The notes: generated by a model from the letters alone, not told the origin. A DNA stretch of 64,000 bases from a virus (IMGVR_UViG_3300028591_000104:32001-96000); one strand, 5' to 3'; shown: positions 4,775 through 48,087, counted from the stretch's first letter. A program made the numbers and translations.

Positions 4775-4860
4775 GGAAGAGTAAACCGTAATTGGTAGCG
4801 GGCGTGGCTGTAGACCACGTGTCAGTGACTCTGGGGGTTCAAGTCCCTCCTCTTCCACCA
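4775..4860 (+). tRNA. tRNA-Tyr(GTA), G1:C72
   Basis: CGTGG-CTGTAGA-CCACG, variable arm, A73 CCA. Confidence 0.9.
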
Positions 4861-6011: not shown

Positions 6012-6095
6012 ACCCGAGTGGTGGAAGTGGTAGACACGCTAGTCTTAGAATCTAGTGCCTTGTGCGTAAGAGTTCGAATCTCTTCTTGGGTACCA
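6012..6095 (+). tRNA. tRNA-Leu(TAG)
   Basis: Leu-type D arm GGTGGAAGTGGTAGACAC; loop CTTAGAA; variable arm; ACCA. Confidence 0.92.
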
Positions 6096-6981: not shown

Positions 6982-7351
6982 GGGGGTGTAATAGGTTTCG
7001 ACAGGGTTAAAAAGTTTAGATAAGCGAACAGAGGATTCTCGTTGTGCCTCTATAAAAAACGAGAACTTTTAAATATAATCGCTAATGATTACGCTTTAGC
7101 AGCCTGATAATGCTGCCGTTTACTTTATTTAATCTGTAAGATAAGGTAAATGTACGGTTTCAGACCTTGATTATTAGAGGTGAAATAATCAAAACTTATT
7201 TTAGTGGTTCGGCTAAGATATTTTATTCAGAACTCCTTGATTATTAATTTGCCAATAGAGGAATAATTAAAGGATAAATAAATATTGGCTATGTTCGTAG
7301 AAAGTCTAAGGTTTTTAGTTTTGGACAGGGGTTCGACTCCCCTCACTTCCA
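6982..7351 (+). ncRNA. ssrA: tmRNA; tag ORF 7081-7107 ANDYALAA-TGA
   Basis: 5' GGGGGTGTAATAGGTTTCGAC, 3' GGACAGGGGTTCGACTCCCCTCACTTCCA, G3:U70, YALAA tag. Confidence 0.95.
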
Positions 7352-10249: not shown

Positions 10250-10278
10250 TTGTTTTTTTAAAAATTTTATGTTATAAT
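10250..10278 (+). promoter_or_regulatory. Sigma-A-type promoter driving ORF 10311, the CUA tRNA and tRNA-Cys; one of about 20 similar copies (e.g. 1022, 2251, 10926, 11640, 15168, 36448, 48079, 50412, 52837, 59830)
   Basis: TTG(T/A)(T/C)N-17 bp-TATAAT with extended TG and a conserved ATATATGTAAAA downstream. Confidence 0.8.
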
Positions 10279-10310
10279 ATATATGTAAAAAAGATAAGGG
10301 AGTAGATATT

Positions 10311-10598
10311 ATGAAGAAAGTTTATGTGCTTACAATGAGTAAAGACACAGTTGTTTGTGTAGCTGATTCTCTTAAAGTAATAGAAGATTATCTTAAATTT
10401 GACTGTAAGTCGATGGGTACAATTAGTACAGATTTGTTTCAGTACAATTATGAAGATGATTTTAATGGATTTTTAATTTATCAAGTTAGGGCTTTTAATA
10501 AAAATAGTAACAAGTTTACTGACTTTTTTGATTATAAACTTCATGTCGGTTTCATGAATGTTGTAGACCCTACGGAATTAGATTATACGCCTTATTAA
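10311..10598 (+). CDS. Hypothetical protein immediately upstream of the suppressor tRNA
   Basis: ORF with RBS GGGAG. Confidence 0.75.
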   Translation: MKKVYVLTMSKDTVVCVADSLKVIEDYLKFDCKSMGTISTDLFQYNYEDDFNGFLIYQVRAFNKNSNKFTDFFDYKLHVGFMNVVDPTELDYTPY

Positions 10599-10606
10599 AT
10601 TAAGTC

Positions 10607-10697
10607 CGGGCGGTATGCAAGTGGTCAAAGTACGCGGACTCTAACTCCGATGCCAGTAGCTAAGGCTTCGCAGGTTCGAATCCTGCCCGCCCGACCA
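10607..10697 (+). tRNA. Amber-decoding tRNA (anticodon CTA at 10641-10643), tRNA-Tyr-like class II body, C1:G72, A73
   Basis: CGGGCGG/CCGCCCG-A-CCA; GCGGA-CTCTAAC-TCCG (cf. Tyr GCGGACTGTAAATCCG); long variable arm; GCAGG-TTCGAAT-CCTGC. Confidence 0.92.
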
Positions 10698-10700
10698 TAT

Positions 10701-10775
10701 GCTACTGAACCTCGTCGGCCGGGGGAGGCGCCGCAACCGCCTCGTTAGTTGGTTCGACTCCAACCGGTAGCTCCA
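10701..10775 (+). tRNA. tRNA-Cys(GCA), C33, atypical D arm
   Basis: AGGCG-CCGCAAC-CGCCT; T73 CCA. Confidence 0.8.
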
Positions 10776-10986
10776 TAGAAGTGAGAATTAAATTATGCGT
10801 TAAAGGATAGCCTTTGGATTGACTGGGACTCCACGCTCATAGGAGGTAGAGTAGCAGTCATTAGTTAACAGTTTCGATGCCGAGCGCAGGGTGCATAAGC
10901 TGTCTTTTTAAAACTAACCACATCTTGTTTTATTAAAAATTTTATGTTATAATATATATGTAAAAAAGAGAAAGGAAAAGAAATAA

Positions 10987-12354: not shown

Positions 12355-12428
12355 GCGGGATATGGTCTAGAGGGCTAAGACGCCGGCGCGGAGCCGGAGA
12401 CGTGAGGTTCGAATCCCACTATTCTGCA
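12355..12428 (+). tRNA. Degenerate tRNA-Pro(CGG)-like element, no CCA
   Basis: D arm and GGTTCGAATCC T arm present; aberrant loop CGCGGAG. Confidence 0.5.
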
Positions 12429-12487
12429 ATTATTGTTTTCTAAGAAGTCTCCGGCTTATAAATTCCGCTACACATTTTTTAATAAAA

Positions 12488-12717
12488 ACGACACATGCAG
12501 CAATTTTTACATGATTGATAATCAGAGAAACCGCTCATTTCTTTTTATGTCGTGTCGTGTATTTAAACCGAAAGACCCTTACAGCAACTTATTTAGGAAA
12601 ATTATTAAATTTAGCTGGATAATGTTCACAAACAGGGTCTTGTATTTTTTAGAAAGACGCACTCAGCAACTCTTGAAAATGTCTGCAATTTGGTATGTTG
12701 ATGAAAAAACGCGTCTT
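12488..12717 (+). repeat. Three tandem stem-loop units GAC-N6/7-CAGCAA...GTC
   Basis: ACGACAC/GTGTCGT, AAGACCCT/AGGGTCTT, AAGACGC/GCGTCTT, each followed by CAGCAA. Confidence 0.75.
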
Positions 12718-12735
12718 GGAAAGGAGAAAAAGGAT

Positions 12736-14277
12736 ATGGATTTTTATGGTATGATGAAGAATGGTGCAACTCAGAGAACAGAGAATGGGGCAGTAGGTTA
12801 CGTGACCTCCAAGTCCGCCCTTGTCGATCTTAACTTTGCTACTGGGTCTATGCGTAATATGTCTGAGGACGAAATCGTTGATAGATTCTGGAATGCTTGG
12901 AACGAGGACCAGGTTCTAGCTTTGCGTTGGCTTTTCTTCGCAAGAGATATTCGTAATGGTGGTATGGGAGAGCGTAGAACTTTCCGTACTATTCTTGGGG
13001 ATTTAGTCTACAATGATATAATCCCTTCTGATAAGTATTTCTCTCTCTATAAGTTGATTGAAAAGTATGGAAGGCTTGATGACTTTATCAATCTTATTGA
13101 TATTGTCACAGGTGAGCAGAAGGAAGCTCTTGTTGAGGTTCTTTCTATGGGTCTTGCAGCTGATACTGTAGCTATGCTTCAGAAGAAGCCTGTTACTCTG
13201 TTGGCTAAATGGATGCCCTCTATCAATACTTCCTCAAAGGAAACAAAAGCTCGTGCTGCTAAGTTAGCTCAGGCTTTCCATATCACACATAGAGAGTATC
13301 GTATGATGTTGTCTAAGCTTCGTGCTTATATTGACGTAACTGAAGTTAGAGCTTCGGCTAATGATTGGGATAAGATTGACTATTCAAAGGTTCCTTCTTA
13401 TGCTAATATTAGATTTGCTAATGCTTTCTTGAAGCATGACCAGGAGAGAAGAGAAAAGTATCTTGAATCCTTGAAGAAGGGCGAGACTAAGATTAACGCT
13501 GGAACTTTGTTCCCTTATAACATTGTTCATAAATATGGTGGTCATTATTTCTGGTCACGCATTTCTTCTGTAGATGATACTCTTGAGCAGCTTTGGAAGG
13601 CTTTGCCTGACTATGAACTTAGAAATACTCTTGTAGTAGCTGATGGTTCTGGTTCAATGAGAACTCGAATTAGTGGCGGTTCTGAAGTGACTGCTCTTGA
13701 AGTAGCTAACTCTATTGCCATCTATGCTTCAGAGCACAATGAAGGTGTATTTGCGGATAAGTACATTACATTCTCAGGACACCCTGAGTTTGTAGAGTTC
13801 AGACGCCAAGACACTCTTCACAAGAAGCTTAATAAGGCTTATGAACACGATGAGTGCGCAAACACCAACATCGAGGCCGTATTTGAGCTTATCCTTCATA
13901 CAGCAGTACACAACAATGTACCTGCCAATGAGATGCCTGAGAGAATCCTTATTATCTCTGATATGGAGTTCGACGATGCAACTCATGGCAAAGGTTGGTG
14001 GGATAATGGAAACTGGAAGGCTCCTGATAAGGCGCTTTTCGAGGAAATCGCTGAAGCATATGCCGATAGAGGATATAAGCTTCCTAAGCTCGTATTCTGG
14101 AACGTATGCTCTAGAACTAACACAATCCCCGTACAGGAGAATGAGTTAGGTGTAGCACTCGTATCCGGTTTCTCACCCGCTATCTTTGATATGGTGATGA
14201 GCGATGAAGTAGACCCCTATAAGATCCTCGTAGCTAAGCTTGAGGGTTATAAGGATGCTGATAAGCTCCTTAATTAA
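12736..14277 (+). CDS. DUF2828 / vWA (TROVE/Ro60-like) protein
   Basis: RTENGA, ARDIRNGGMGER, AKWMPS, MIDAS DGSGSM, NTNIEAVF, ISDMEFD, VFWNV; RBS AAGGAG supports ATG 12736. Confidence 0.85.
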   Translation: MDFYGMMKNGATQRTENGAVGYVTSKSALVDLNFATGSMRNMSEDEIVDRFWNAWNEDQVLALRWLFFARDIRNGGMGERRTFRTILGDLVYNDIIPSDKYFSLYKLIEKYGRLDDFINLIDIVTGEQKEALVEVLSMGLAADTVAMLQKKPVTLLAKWMPSINTSSKETKARAAKLAQAFHITHREYRMMLSKLRAYIDVTEVRASANDWDKIDYSKVPSYANIRFANAFLKHDQERREKYLESLKKGETKINAGTLFPYNIVHKYGGHYFWSRISSVDDTLEQLWKALPDYELRNTLVVADGSGSMRTRISGGSEVTALEVANSIAIYASEHNEGVFADKYITFSGHPEFVEFRRQDTLHKKLNKAYEHDECANTNIEAVFELILHTAVHNNVPANEMPERILIISDMEFDDATHGKGWWDNGNWKAPDKALFEEIAEAYADRGYKLPKLVFWNVCSRTNTIPVQENELGVALVSGFSPAIFDMVMSDEVDPYKILVAKLEGYKDADKLLN

Positions 14278-15955: not shown

Positions 15956-16031
15956 TGAGGACTAGCATAATTGGCAGTGCAACGGTTTCTGGTACCGTGG
16001 GTTCTGGGTTCAAATCCCAGGTCCTCATCCA
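15956..16031 (+). tRNA. tRNA-Gln(CTG)
   Basis: U1:A72; ACGGT-TTCTGGT-ACCGT; CCA. Confidence 0.88.
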
Positions 16032-16134: not shown

Positions 16135-16219
16135 TGGGGGGTGTCCGAGTGGTTAATGGAGCCAGGCTTTGACCCTGGTAGCTTAGCTTTCGTGGGTTCG
16201 AATCCCACCCCCTCAGCCA
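16135..16219 (+). tRNA. tRNA-Gln(TTG) with extended variable arm
   Basis: U1:A72, G73; CCAGG-CTTTGAC-CCTGG; AGCTTAGCT variable hairpin. Confidence 0.85.
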
Positions 16220-16833: not shown

Positions 16834-19800
16834 ATGGCAACAGTTGACAATAGAAGTATTACAACTAATATGGAAGAAATATTCCTCTTACAGTCCATGG
16901 ATGGCGGCGGCTCGGGTAGTGGCGGTGGATTTAACGGTAAATATTTAGCCATTGAAGCTGCCTTAAATCAGCAATTCGGTGAACCATCTATATCAATGGG
17001 TACTAAAAGCTATGCTGCTAAATATGGAAGTATTGTAGTTGGTACTGACAGCAAATCTGGTGAATATAACACTATTACTTTTGGTAATAATAATGTAAAT
17101 ACTAGTTATGAAAGTTTAGTATTGGGTAATAGTAATGAAATACATATGACCTATCCAGCTAGACCAGAAATAGCAGGTCTTATAGTAGGTGGGCATAATA
17201 ATAAACTTTATCCTATATTGTATGATAGTAATTATAATCGAATTACTATTGAAGGAGTTGTTCCTGTTTATTATTTTGAAGGTTCTTTTTATGAAAGTTT
17301 GGATTATGTAAATCCAACCACCCCTGAGAATAATAAAATTTATGTTGATTTATTATCTGATACTGATAATAGATATTTATATTATAATGATGAGCTTTTT
17401 AGTTTTCAAGCATTGAAAAATTTAGGTTGGATAATTCCTGATACTAGTATTTTAGGTATTATTTCTGGTGAGAATAATGTATATAGAATAGGCAGCAATA
17501 ATGATTGGGCCTGTGTTTATAGTTTTGGAGATGCAAATAAAATAATTAATGAATTTAATGATAATCTTCATTTTATAGCAGGGCAAGATAACGAAATAAG
17601 TGTTGTAACTAACAAGGATAAAAATCATAATATTCCAGACTCAGAGAGTACATTAGTTGCTTTTGGTAGCCGAAATAAAATAGATTTACAAGTTAATTCT
17701 AAAGCAGGTAGTCAACTTTATTTATTAGGCTATAATAATGAATTTTCCAATGAAAATATAACTTCTAAGTTTGATAGTACTGATGTTAATTTTATATGTG
17801 GGGAAGGAAATAAACTTTTAATAAGAGATCAATATAATGATAAGAATAATATAACTGTTGAAAATAATATTATTTTTGGTAGAGGCAATAAATTAGAGTT
17901 TAGTAATTATAACTATATCTATGGACTTAATGGATATAGTAATATTGTCTTAGGTGAAAATAATAAAATTTTTGGACGTGACGCTCATAGTGGCACTAAT
18001 ACCAATCGAAATATAATTATAGGTCAAGATAATAAAATTGGTGGTAATGAATATGATGTAGAAGAAAGAAAATGTGATTCTTTACATCAAAATTATATCT
18101 TTGGTAATGATATAGAATTATCAACTACAGGAGATTTAAAAGATAATGTTTATCTTGGTAAATCTCATGGATTAACATATAATCCTTCTGTAATTAATAA
18201 CGTTATTGGTGGAAATCAAGTATTTTTTAAAGGTTCTAAATAGTGTAGTGATAATTTATTAGTTGGACCTAATTCAAGTAGTTTAATAGTTAGTGGTTCT
18301 GGTAATTTAGGCTTAGGAAAAAATTCAATTTATGGAAATAATTGCGTTGTTGTAGGCGAAGATAATACGATTAAAGCTAATATTAGAAATATCGGAGAAT
18401 ATTATTCAGGTAGTATTTATAATGAAGGTGATTTTTGTTATTATAATGATATTCTTTATATTTGTAAAAGTAATAATGTAACCGGTCCTTTTAATATGCA
18501 AAATTGGTAGGAACCTGAATTAGGTAACTATTCATATATTTTTGGTAGAAGGAATGGTGTAAATGGTGATTATAGTATTGTGATTGGAGAACTCAATGCA
18601 GTAACTGGTGATTATAATGTTGTATTTGGAAAAAATAATACTATTACTAAAAATTATAATGCAGCATTTGGTCATGACAATTCTATGAATGGTTCTTATA
18701 ATAGCTTAACTTTTGGAGAACAAAATATAATACAATCAAGTGATAGTTTTGTCGGAGGATATTATGGAAAATCGACAGGCACAACTGGTTTTTGTTTTAG
18801 CGGTTTAGGTACTACCCCCGAGGAATTTTATGGTGTAGATTTAATTTATTATTTTCCAGAAGCGGATGAAATAACAGATGAGCGCATTATTTTTAATACA
18901 GCTAAATCCGTAACTAAAATTACAATTAAATTAAATTATACTACTAAAACTATAGAAGCTTTAAAACGTGTAAGCGCAGCTGCTATTTACGCTAGTAATT
19001 TACAAAGTGGATTTGGTTAGTATGATTTAAATAATCCTGATGGGCCTCAAGTAGGAGGTACTAGTTTTGGAGTTGATCCTAGTCAACAAGATTTATTAAT
19101 AAGTTTAGAAAATCCAGAGCTTACATTAAATCTTAGTTCACCCATATCTATGCCTGCAAATAGATTTATTAAAAGAAGTGAAATATCAGGATGGACCTCA
19201 GCATGTGTCGGTTATGGTCCTAATATTCAATCTTCTGATAAATCACAAGTATTAAAAACGGGTGGAGTAGCTATAGGTACTGGTGTAATAGCTAATGGTA
19301 TGTGTCAAACTGTTATAGGCAGAGGTAATATATCAGATTCAGATAGTTTATTTATTATAGGTAACGGTAGAATTACACCAGCTTATGATGCAAACCATAA
19401 TCCTTATAGTGATACTTTAGATAGGTCTAATGCACTTACTGTAGACTGGGATGGTAACCAAGTACTTGCGGGCAAGCTTACTGTCGGCACGCAACCTACG
19501 GCCGCGAATGATGTAACCACTAAAACATATGTTGATACAGCAGATGCAGCTATATCAGCCGAAATTGAAACTCCTATAACTGGACTTAAAGCACGCATGA
19601 CAACAGCCGAAGGCGCGATTTCAGATCTCGAAACAACAGTTGGAGATAGCACATCAGGCTTAGTTAAAGATGTAAATGATTTACAAACTGAAGTAGAAGC
19701 TTCTACTACTGGATTAATAGATAGAACTACTAATCTTGAAACAACTGTAGGTGATAGTAATAGTGGTTTAGTACATGATGTAGACGACCTTGAAGATCGC

Positions 19801-20070
19801 GTAACTACACTTGAACAAGCACCCCTTCCTACTGTATCACTTTCTCAAACCAATACAACAATTACTGGTTTGTCACAAGGAGATACTGATATAACATTAC
19901 CTTCTGGATATACTGATAATAGTATTGTAGATATTTATATAGATAGATTGCATTATTGTAATATTTTAGATTTCACAATTAATCAAGGTATTGCTTCTTT
20001 CTCTACTTCTCCAATAGCAACAGGAAATGAATTAGTTCAAGTTAGTATAACAAATGTTAATATATCTTAA
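16834..20070 (+). CDS. Large beta-helical adhesin / tail fibre-like protein (~1078 aa); TAGs at 18241, 18508, 19018
   Basis: Three ORF-track fragments in one frame separated only by TAG; GxxN repeats, YadA-like neck, coiled coil. Confidence 0.8.
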
Positions 20071-46057: not shown

Positions 46058-46110
46058 ATAAAATTTTTGTTATAATATATTTATAATAAATTAAAGGAAA
46101 TAGAGGATAA

Positions 46111-48087
46111 ATGAAAGAACAGATTAGGCAAATTATTAATCAGCTTAATGAGGCTACAAAGGCCTACGATGAAGGGCATCCCATGATGAGTGATAAGGCA
46201 TGGGATGACCTCTATTTCTATCTTCAGCAATTAGAGCATCAGTCTGGAATTTATTTTCCAGATAGTCCTACTCAAAAGATTAACTTTGAAATAACTACTC
46301 CATTAAGGAAGGTAGAGCATACTCATTTAATGCTTAGTTTGGATAAAACTAAAGATTTAAATGAAATTAAGACTTTTGTTAAAAAGCATCCATCTATTTG
46401 TATGGGAAAGATGGATGGTTTGACTTGCGCACTGAGGTATAAGGATGGGGAATTAATCGCTGCTGAAACGCGTGGAAATGGTGTAATTGGTGAAGATGTT
46501 TTTTATAATATTATAAATATTAATAATATTCCCAAAAAGATAAAAATAAAAGATGAAGTTGAAGTAGATGGTGAAATTATCTGTAAGTATGATGATTTTG
46601 AGCCATTTGCAGAAGAATATAAGAATCCAAGAAACTTCGCAGCTGGAAGCATTAGATTATTAGACAGCGAAGAATGTGCAAAAAGAAATTTATCTTTTAT
46701 TGCATGGGATTGGATTAATAATCCTTATCCTAGACTTGGTGATGCTTTAGTTGAGTTAAAAGGATTAGGATTTACTACTGTTCCTTATTGGGATGGAATT
46801 ATAACAGAGTTTGAGATTGATAATTTAAATGAAATTGTTGATTTTGTTAAAAATTCTTGTGCCAATGAAAAGCTCCCAATAGATGGATTAGTATTTAAGT
46901 ATGATTATGTGACAGATTATAAAGCTGAAGGTAGAACAACTCATCACTTTAGAGGTGGTTTAGCTTTTAAGTTTTATGATGAATGTGTTGAGACCGAAAT
47001 TGAAGATATAGAGTGGTCTATGGGCAGAGAAGGCAGATTAACTCCTGTAGCGATTTTTAAGCCTATAGAGCTTGAAGGAACTGAGGTATCAAGAGCAAGT
47101 CTTCATAATTTAAGTGTTCTTGATGAACTTTGCGGCGGCCAGGCGCCTATGCGTGGTGACATAGTCAGCGTGTACAAGGCGAATCAAATTATACCTCAGA
47201 TTGATATATGGACAACGACCATTGAGCCTCCTGACTATTTTTCAGTTGACCAGGGTTTAGGTGATATGTTAGCACCGCCTGAGGTATGTCCAATATGCGG
47301 CGGCCGCACCGAAATAATAGAAGAAGATTCTGGTACAAAGAATCTCTAGTGTACAAATGACGCTTGCCCCGGTAAGCTAATAAATAGATTAGTTCACTAT
47401 TGCGATATGAAAAAGGGCATGGCAATTAAAGGACTTTCTGAGAAATTAATTTCTCGTTTTATGAACAAAGGTTGGCTTAATAGTTTTTTTGATTTATACA
47501 ATTTACACCAGTTCCGTACAGATATGGAAAAAATGGAAGGACTGGGACCGAAATCCGTAGATAATATATTAACCGCAATAGAAGAAAGTAAAAATTGTGA
47601 ATTATGGCAATTTATCTCTGCTCTTGGTATTCCTCTTATCGGAACCACCGCGAGCAAAGACCTTGCGAACCATTTCAGTACTTGGGCAAACTTTTATAAA
47701 TCAATTAAGGAAAATTTCATATATAGTACACTTCCAAATTTTGGTTTTGAAATGAATAAGGCGCTTCATGACTATGATTATAGCGAAGCCGAAAAGATAG
47801 CGGCTATCCTTAATTTTAAAGAACCAAAAGCAGAAGAAATTATAAGCGAAATTTTACAAGGCAAGAAAATTTGCATAACAGGTAAATTGGTTCAGTTTAA
47901 GAACCGGAGTTTGTTCCAGGAGGCTGTTGAAGCTAGAGGCGGCAAGGTGGTGTCTGGTGTGACAGGAGCTACAGACTTCTTGGTAACTAATGACACAGAA
48001 AGCGGTACTGCTAAAAATCAAGCAGCTAAAAAATTAAACATACCTATTATGTCAGAAGAAGATTTTATCAAAAATTTCTTGACTTAA
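46111..48087 (+). CDS. ligA: NAD-dependent DNA ligase; TAG 47347 within the Zn finger
   Basis: KMDG, NPRNFAAGS, CPICG..NL*CTNDACP, HhH, BRCT in one frame. Confidence 0.93.

Follow-up and report, generated by a model that had tools for sequence, protein, structure and literature searches.

A Tyr-type tRNA with anticodon CUA and a C1:G72 pair in a TAG-recoded phage, most likely charged by the host tyrosyl-tRNA synthetase

A phage genome of one contig, 150,486 bp long and 93% complete according to CheckV, carries a single tRNA gene with the anticodon CUA. Which amino acid does this tRNA bring to UAG, and which enzyme loads it? The published cases of stop-codon recoding in phages are limited to TAG to Gln and TGA to Trp, apart from TGA to Gly where the host uses that code as well, and gene callers and protein catalogues accordingly apply table 15 to every TAG-recoded phage. 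With a Tyr-type suppressor, a third amino acid would be in play, and the proteins of this phage would be mistranslated under table 15. The analysis was centred on a stretch of 64,000 nucleotides of this genome (IMGVR_UViG_3300028591_000104:32001-96000; hereafter the window, from whose first letter positions are counted). Its preliminary description had noted a Tyr-type suppressor with an archaeal- or eukaryal-like first pair and had proposed that the phage may encode its own tyrosyl-tRNA synthetase (TyrRS) outside the window, forming a natural orthogonal pair. The evidence given below suggests that the gene probably encodes a functional Tyr-inserting amber suppressor, which reads TAG as a rare Tyr codon and is most likely charged by the host TyrRS.

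The tRNA(CUA) gene is located at positions 10607-10697 on the plus strand and is 91 nt long. ARAGORN called it with the anticodon CTA and found no other CUA tRNA in the 150,486-bp genome, Rfam matched it to the full RF00005 model with 44.1 bits against a gathering score of 29, and a Tyr covariance model recovered it as well. The acceptor stem, CGGGCGG/CCGCCCG, has 7 of 7 Watson-Crick pairs with C:G at 1:72, followed by the discriminator A73 and a CCA end encoded in the gene. The D arm, preceded by U8 and A9, has a 3-bp stem (UGC/GUA, with one G.U pair) and the 11-nt loop AAGUGGUCAAA; G18G19 and the T loop are intact, and the T arm is GCAGG-UUCGAAU-CCUGC. The anticodon stem GCGGA/UCCGA contains four pairs and a G27.A43 mismatch, and its loop is CU-CUA-AC. 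The 19-nt variable arm is composed of U, a GCC..GGC stem, a 9-nt loop and UUC. ARAGORN, Rfam and direct reading confirmed the full cloverleaf, the CTA anticodon, the class II arm, A73 and C1:G72 of the preliminary description, and its comparisons with other tRNAs of the window agree with the sequence: the ordinary tRNA-Tyr(GUA) at 4775-4860 (+), called by ARAGORN and similar to tRNAs in related phages, has G1:C72 (with A73), unlike tRNA(CUA), and the tRNA-Gln at 15956 and the tRNA at 16135 have U1:A72. The minimum-free-energy fold of tRNA(CUA) was no better than that of shuffled sequences (z = -1.2). The label 'Pyl' given to the gene is merely the ARAGORN default name for CUA. tRNA-Pyl is compact, with a short variable loop, a small D loop and a long anticodon stem, and tRNA(CUA), of class II, departs from this architecture in its D loop of 11 nt and its variable arm of 19 nt.

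The phage is TAG-recoded. All genes of the window are on the plus strand, and a late block on the minus strand, at 103.7-147.1 kb of the genome, contains abundant in-frame TAG codons, with six in a 3111-codon ORF, six in a 1504-codon ORF and two each in the portal and terminase genes, which were identified with PHROGs. A Pfam search of ten late proteins gave no match. Broken frames also join within the window if TAG is read through. The NAD-dependent DNA ligase gene (46111-48087, +), an example of a gene dependent on the suppressor, has an in-frame TAG at 47347, through which the translated ORF aligns to full-length LigA structures (E = 1e-65), and the translated tail-fibre-like gene of 1078 codons (16834-20070, +) has TAGs at 18241, 18508 and 19018. 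The CUA anticodon therefore matches a stop codon that lies in frame in essential genes, namely those for portal, terminase, ligase and tail proteins. TAG made up about 5-7% of TAT, TAC and TAG codons in a crude ORF set delimited by TAA or TGA only, which includes some spurious ORFs.

The meaning of TAG was read from relatives. With the portal protein as query, IMG/VR yielded 80 related loci at 46-70% identity; every ORF translated with TAG as X was compared with these 80 loci by tblastn, and the substitution profile was learned from the same alignments. At single TAG sites, relatives had Tyr in 16/16, 20/20, 52/52, 12/12, 46/49, 44/47 and 60/66 cases. Tyr was the majority residue at 11 of 15 TAG sites (at least five aligned homologues each) and at 141 of 197 TAT/TAC sites, which means that TAG sites show the same Tyr-majority rate as ordinary Tyr codons. 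The log-likelihoods for TAG over the 15 sites were -25.6, -41.4, -41.5 and -59 for Tyr, Trp, Phe and Ser, respectively, placing Tyr about 16 nats ahead of the next residue and 33 nats ahead of Ser. Two TAG sites had a Ser/Thr majority in distant relatives; at the portal TAG site, where distant relatives have Ser/Thr, the closest relatives (loci L007 and L008) have Tyr. Across 19 TAG sites these two loci showed 12 Tyr, four TAG, one Ser, one Leu and one gap, so that 16 of 19 sites had Tyr or TAG. When NrdD was aligned with solved structures, one TAG corresponded to Tyr in 8p23 and three others fell in variable positions. The code-15 meaning of TAG, Gln, does not fit these data, as TAG aligns with Tyr and the acceptor end of the tRNA combines A73 with a strong pair at 1:72. 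The alignment of TAG sites with Tyr, together with A73, U35-A36 and the D-arm and variable-arm layout of bacterial tRNA-Tyr, bears out the earlier assignment of the tRNA to the Tyr type, and UAG is most likely read as Tyr by tRNA(CUA).

To place the body of the tRNA, bacterial genomes were scanned with a pattern, which gave 119 tRNA-Tyr(GUA) genes, 65 of them non-redundant with clean acceptor stems. G1, C72 and A73 were invariant in the 65 genes, in agreement with the earlier remark that C1:G72 is unlike bacterial tRNA-Tyr; none of the 65 had C1:G72. Their variable arms consisted of 1 nt, a 3-bp stem, a loop and then UAC or UUC. The variable arm of tRNA(CUA) has the same layout with a larger loop, 19 nt compared with the usual 13-15 nt, a length in or near the range of tRNA-Ser. 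U35 and A36 are kept, and G34 is replaced by C34. A covariance model built from the 65 genes was run on the tRNAs of the window. tRNA(CUA) scored 68.6 bits, a value biased upward because the training set had been picked with a D-loop and anticodon-stem pattern derived from tRNA(CUA) itself. The best score in the window was 80.8 bits, for the tRNA(UUG) at 16135, and the phage tRNA-Tyr(GUA) at 4775, two tRNA-Ser genes and the tRNA-Leu genes reached 49.8 bits, 46.6 and 45.1 bits, and 36.5-40 bits, respectively. Sequence HMMs of phage tRNAs, which are free of this bias, gave tRNA(CUA) 24.9 bits for Tyr, 24.8 for Ser and 15.0 for Leu, so the body alone excludes Leu and not Ser. The D loop of tRNA(CUA), with G15 and an alpha region of two nucleotides, differs from the A15 type of the tRNA-Leu(UAG) at 6012. 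A73 was present in 0/31 phage tRNA-Ser, 7/7 phage tRNA-Tyr and 65/67 bacterial tRNA-Tyr genes, and by these counts the discriminator base does separate Tyr from Ser for tRNA(CUA). With A73, U35-A36 and the codon evidence taken together, Tyr identity is the best reading of the gene. tRNA(CUA) is not a recent copy of the phage tRNA-Tyr(GUA), which is of a different lineage and of a tRNA type that is common to related phages. A close bacterial donor was not found among 78 bacterial tRNA-Tyr genes, the nearest being about 73% identical. Descent from the Gln-type suppressors of the sister clade was considered and is not supported, as the suppressors of genome G003 belong to class I. No GenBank phage matched the 8 kb around the gene by megablast, and exact-pattern scans of IMG/VR and JGI metagenomes returned no close homologue; their hits were CUA tRNAs unrelated to it, apart from one look-alike in a phage of 435 kb.

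The gene lies within a short unit led by a promoter-like element. The preliminary description had placed an early sigma-A-type promoter at 10250. A repeated promoter-like element is indeed present, at 10262-10280 (+); this 19-nt element, AAATTTTATGTTATAATAT, has an extended -10 (TG-n-TATAAT) and a poor -35, and a generic promoter scan did not list it. It occurs 15 times in the window, always on the plus strand, against 0.42 copies expected by chance; the copies span 1803-52867 (e.g., 2264, 10262, 10937, 11652, 48091 and 50424). The copy at 10937 begins the next unit, and that at 46060 is upstream of the TAG-containing ligase gene. Since AAATTTTATGTTATAATAT also precedes genes that contain TAG, it gives no indication that tRNA(CUA) is made before the genes it serves, and the earlier suggestion of such an order found no support. 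Between the element and the tRNA, the ORF list has a 95-aa ORF without TAG (10311-10598, +), which ends 8 nt before tRNA(CUA) and is probably co-transcribed with it. A Pfam search with this ORF gave no match, and an IMG/VR search gave no related locus. Homologues with 76-84% identity are present on seven short public contigs (ENA, Logan, JGI and NCBI); therefore, close relatives of the phage exist outside IMG/VR. An atypical tRNA-Cys(GCA)-like gene called by ARAGORN (10701-10775, +) follows the CCA of tRNA(CUA) at a distance of 3 nt. Its discriminator is U73, its D arm is unusual, and it falls below the Rfam tRNA threshold, the best match being tRNA-Sec with 25.6 bits against 47. The extended -10 promoter would drive a common transcript of the small ORF, tRNA(CUA) and the tRNA-Cys-like gene, from which the tRNA would be processed.

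The question of the charging enzyme turns on the first pair. C1:G72 with A73 is the signature of archaeal and eukaryal tRNA-Tyr, and tRNA(CUA) has both; the short class I variable loop of those tRNAs is absent from it. The validated determinants of bacterial tRNA-Tyr are A73, G34 and U35 (PMC9976931); G34 is the one that tRNA(CUA) lacks. Bacterial TyrRS is generally held to prefer G1:C72. Pair 1:72 has been held responsible for the lack of cross-charging between kingdoms (PMC1934993), so C1:G72 should cost some charging efficiency. The bacterial-type TyrRS enzymes of human mitochondria and of the Plasmodium apicoplast have been reported to charge G1:C72 and C1:G72 tRNAs about equally, so an enzyme of this type can tolerate C1:G72. 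The variable arm that bacterial TyrRS reads is retained in tRNA(CUA), and charging by the host TyrRS is likely. Under this reading, a host TyrRS of the bacterial type would recognise A73, U35/A36 and the long variable arm, and the charged tRNA would compete with host RF1 at UAG. We infer expression of the gene, its charging by the host TyrRS and the tolerance of this enzyme for C1:G72. A C1:G72 Tyr suppressor with a bacterial variable arm would make a test object for the strictness of bacterial TyrRS at 1:72, which matters for the design of orthogonal pairs.

On a rival reading, C1:G72 would make tRNA(CUA) a poor substrate for the host TyrRS, and a dedicated synthetase would charge it. This synthetase could be encoded by the phage and unrecognised, lie in the missing 7% of a genome rated 93% complete, or be an archaeal-type TyrRS of an unusual host, and the archaeal/eukaryal signature C1:G72 with A73, together with the occurrence of C1 in 0/65 bacterial tRNA-Tyr genes, speaks for it. 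The whole-genome searches for TyrRS and release factors suggested earlier were carried out with PF00579 (TyrRS/TrpRS) and PF00472 (release factor), and neither had a match in the 150-kb genome, although the PF00579 search was positive in 14 of 14 control genomes, M. jannaschii included. PF00579 was likewise without a match in 26 records of the phage family, eight of them at least 90% complete, and in five other phage records with comparable tRNAs, among them a complete 435-kb phage and the contig of locus L095. An archaeal-type TyrRS would moreover reject the phage's own tRNA-Tyr(GUA) with G1:C72, and the long variable arm is an element read by the bacterial enzyme. Named relatives by portal similarity infect Bacillota and not CPR bacteria, the phAss-1 paper agrees on the host, and the host of the present phage is probably a member of the Bacillota. 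The natural orthogonal pair proposed in the preliminary description is, on this evidence, very unlikely. Because there is no sign of a private synthetase, C1:G72 stays unexplained. A strong 1:72 pair with A73 would bar a CUA tRNA from the Gln pathway, since the latter reads U1:A72 or a weak pair with G73; this argument does not choose between C:G and G:C at 1:72.

Two further readings were considered. If tRNA(CUA) were charged wholly or partly with Ser, Leu, Gln/Glu (by U35-dependent mischarging) or Lys, the equal HMM scores for Tyr and Ser, the variable arm of tRNA-Ser length and the Ser/Thr majority at two TAG sites would be accounted for, and sister lineages do show host enzymes loading CUA tRNAs with Gln or Glu. 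The codon likelihoods favour Tyr over the next residue by 16 nats and over Ser by 33, and the portal site with Ser/Thr in distant relatives is Tyr in the closest ones. The absence of A73 from all 31 phage tRNA-Ser genes argues against Ser, the low Leu score and the G15 D loop, unlike the A15 type of tRNA-Leu(UAG), argue against Leu, and the strong 1:72 pair with A73 opposes Gln identity; another amino acid is thus unlikely. The gene could also be a relic or a non-decoding tRNA, with TAG read by a host suppressor or by read-through. Its G27.A43 mismatch, its D stem of three pairs and a fold no better than shuffled sequences are in line with decay, and a suppressor tRNA is present in no more than about half of TAG-recoded phages (35-40% according to Borges et al. 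and 52% according to Cook et al. 2024). Decay is difficult to reconcile with perfect acceptor and T arms, with intact U8, G18G19, T loop and encoded CCA, with a promoter-led unit inside a phage tRNA cluster, and with identity features that match the amino acid inferred independently from the codons. We regard a relic as extremely improbable, and a Tyr-inserting suppressor charged by the host TyrRS as the preferred reading.

The TAG-site analysis was repeated for each of the 80 portal-related loci (L007-L086). TAG was assigned to Tyr in the present phage, L007 and L008, to Gln in 15 loci, to Glu in 31 loci (e.g., L082, with log-likelihoods of -85, -139 and -159 for Glu, Asp and Gln, respectively) and to Trp in three loci (in L063, -34.5 for Trp and -89 for Tyr); 28 loci were not recoded. 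L056 had only five TAG sites, three of them with a Leu majority. A single phage family is thus predicted to read TAG as Tyr, Gln, Glu or Trp according to lineage, which is new here; a literature search found no paper on TAG to Glu or TAG to Trp in phages. The portal tree groups the Tyr clade with a Gln clade as its sister, inside a half dominated by Gln. The CUA tRNAs of the lineages agree with these readings. In the Trp lineage, a tRNA-Trp-like CUA tRNA adjoins the tRNA-Trp of the genome, and in one genome of the Gln lineage the two CUA tRNAs are of class I, with G73 and a weak pair at 1:72. The Glu-lineage genomes G006, G007 and G010 share a conserved tRNA(CUA) of class I, with a D arm of the Glu kind (L109 1468-1541, L121 1489-1562 on the minus strand, and L122 2104-2177), whose first pair and discriminator, C1:G72 and A73, are those of the Tyr suppressor. 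C1:G72 therefore recurs in phage tRNAs, including the Glu-type suppressor of sister lineages.

The Glu-lineage tRNAs and the strong-pair argument led to the hypothesis that acceptor-end identity acts as a switch of TAG meaning. Across the family, the meaning of TAG would have been set, and changed several times, by the acceptor end of the CUA tRNA, and C1:G72 would be a functional insulator and not an archaeal relic; we consider this idea tentative and rather doubtful. Host enzymes would readily load CUA tRNAs in this setting. A weak or U1:A72 pair with G73 would lead to Gln; a class I tRNA that joins C1:G72 to a Glu-like D arm would stay Glu, because amidotransferases need U1:A72; and a Tyr-bodied tRNA with C1:G72 and A73 would lead to Tyr. 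C1:G72 would keep a CUA tRNA away from both the GluRS signature (G1:C72) and the signature of the Gln pathway (U1:A72). A family in which TAG means Tyr, Gln, Glu or Trp would be a natural experiment in changing the meaning of a codon through tRNA identity elements.

Among known systems, the nearest functional analogue of tRNA(CUA) is supF (su+3) of E. coli. This is a tRNA-Tyr whose anticodon has changed from GUA to CUA and which inserts Tyr at UAG by means of the ordinary cellular TyrRS. Both tRNAs have a class II body of the bacterial Tyr type, A73, U35, A36 and C34. supF differs in having G1:C72 and an arm of 13 nt, and it arose in the laboratory or spontaneously in a cell with the standard code, whereas the present tRNA has C1:G72 and a 19-nt arm and serves a phage in which TAG is a regular sense codon. 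Stop codons one base from TAY have also become Tyr elsewhere: TAA and TAG are Tyr in the nuclear code of Mesodinium (NCBI table 29), and TAA is Tyr in flatworm mitochondria. These codes are eukaryotic, nuclear or organellar, with no phage or bacterial link, and that of Mesodinium involves both UAR codons.

The code-15 phages (crAss-like phages, Lak, Agate and phAss-1) resemble the present phage in being large gut or rumen phages with a CUA tRNA and late in-frame TAG codons, and in having no phage synthetase, a host enzyme being presumed. They differ in that TAG is Gln and the tRNAs are Gln-like (U1:A72 or a weak 1:72 pair, usually with G73), while in the present phage TAG stands for Tyr and the tRNA resembles tRNA-Tyr. 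The present phage and phAss-1 are distantly related, with 35.5% portal identity; the phAss-1 authors found no synthetase gene and suggested use of the host enzyme (PMC10607447). Borges et al. saw solely TAG to Gln and TGA to Trp in phages with a code unlike that of the host. Tyrosine is not mentioned in the phAss-1 paper (PMC10607447) or in Cook et al. 2024, and our literature search found no case of TAG to Tyr in a phage or bacterium. Archaeal and eukaryal tRNA-Tyr and the M. jannaschii TyrRS/tRNA(CUA) orthogonal pair share C1:G72 and A73 with tRNA(CUA), and the engineered form shares CUA; their variable loop is short and they depend on a TyrRS of the archaeal type, in contrast to the long bacterial-type arm and the absence of such an enzyme, as searched with PF00579, from the phage genome and 26 relatives. 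The combination of C1:G72 with a bacterial-type variable arm is found in the tRNA-Tyr of CPR bacteria, whose genomes also encode an archaeal-type TyrRS (Mukai et al. 2017, PMC5370408). The CPR tRNA has the anticodon GUA, while here the anticodon is CUA and the phage tRNA-Tyr with GUA has G1:C72.

Comparable tRNAs were also seen in other phages. A complete 435-kb phage (G025) with 61% GC has a class II tRNA(CUA) at L099 8018-8108 on the minus strand, identical to L398 99-189. Like the tRNA studied here, it combines C1:G72 and A73 with a class II D arm and a variable arm of 19 nt, and the two agree in their anticodon and T stems. The terminase of this phage has no in-frame stop, PF00579 had no match in its genome, and Pfam gave one uninformative hit for eight ORFs of the locus. 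The idea that the variable-arm loop mimics the Tyr anticodon was dropped, as the L099 tRNA has no such motif. At L095 6110-6197 (+), on a 57-kb contig that also has a Gln-like CUA suppressor, there is a phage tRNA-Tyr(GUA) with a variable arm, A73 and C1:G72; C1:G72 is therefore not limited to suppressors among phage Tyr-type tRNAs. Long-armed CUA tRNAs were also found on IMG/VR viral contigs (L135-L149, L271, L356, L364, L371 and L386). In most of them, a class I D arm is combined with U1:A72 or with an A1.C72 mismatch; the discriminator is G73 in the tRNAs with A1.C72 and mostly A73 in those with U1:A72. The extra arm of these tRNAs has a recurrent ...CUCUGAAGG... loop, a design that differs from the tRNA studied here.

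ARAGORN found 26 tRNAs and a tmRNA in the window. The tRNA with anticodon UUG at 16135-16219 (+), which had the highest Tyr-model score, has a class II Tyr-like body with U1:A72 and G73, so that acceptor and anticodon elements of the Gln type are set on a Tyr scaffold; the tRNA-Gln(UUG) of related phages is an ordinary class I tRNA, unlike this gene. A tRNA-like sequence at 12356-12427 (+), scored by Rfam at 42.4 bits and missed by ARAGORN, has C1:G72 and an irregular anticodon loop and lies just upstream of a DUF2828/DUF7788/VWA gene (12433-14277). The tmRNA of the phage is located at 6982-7351 (+) within the tRNA cluster, with an Rfam score of 131.6 bits and the tag ANDYALAA.
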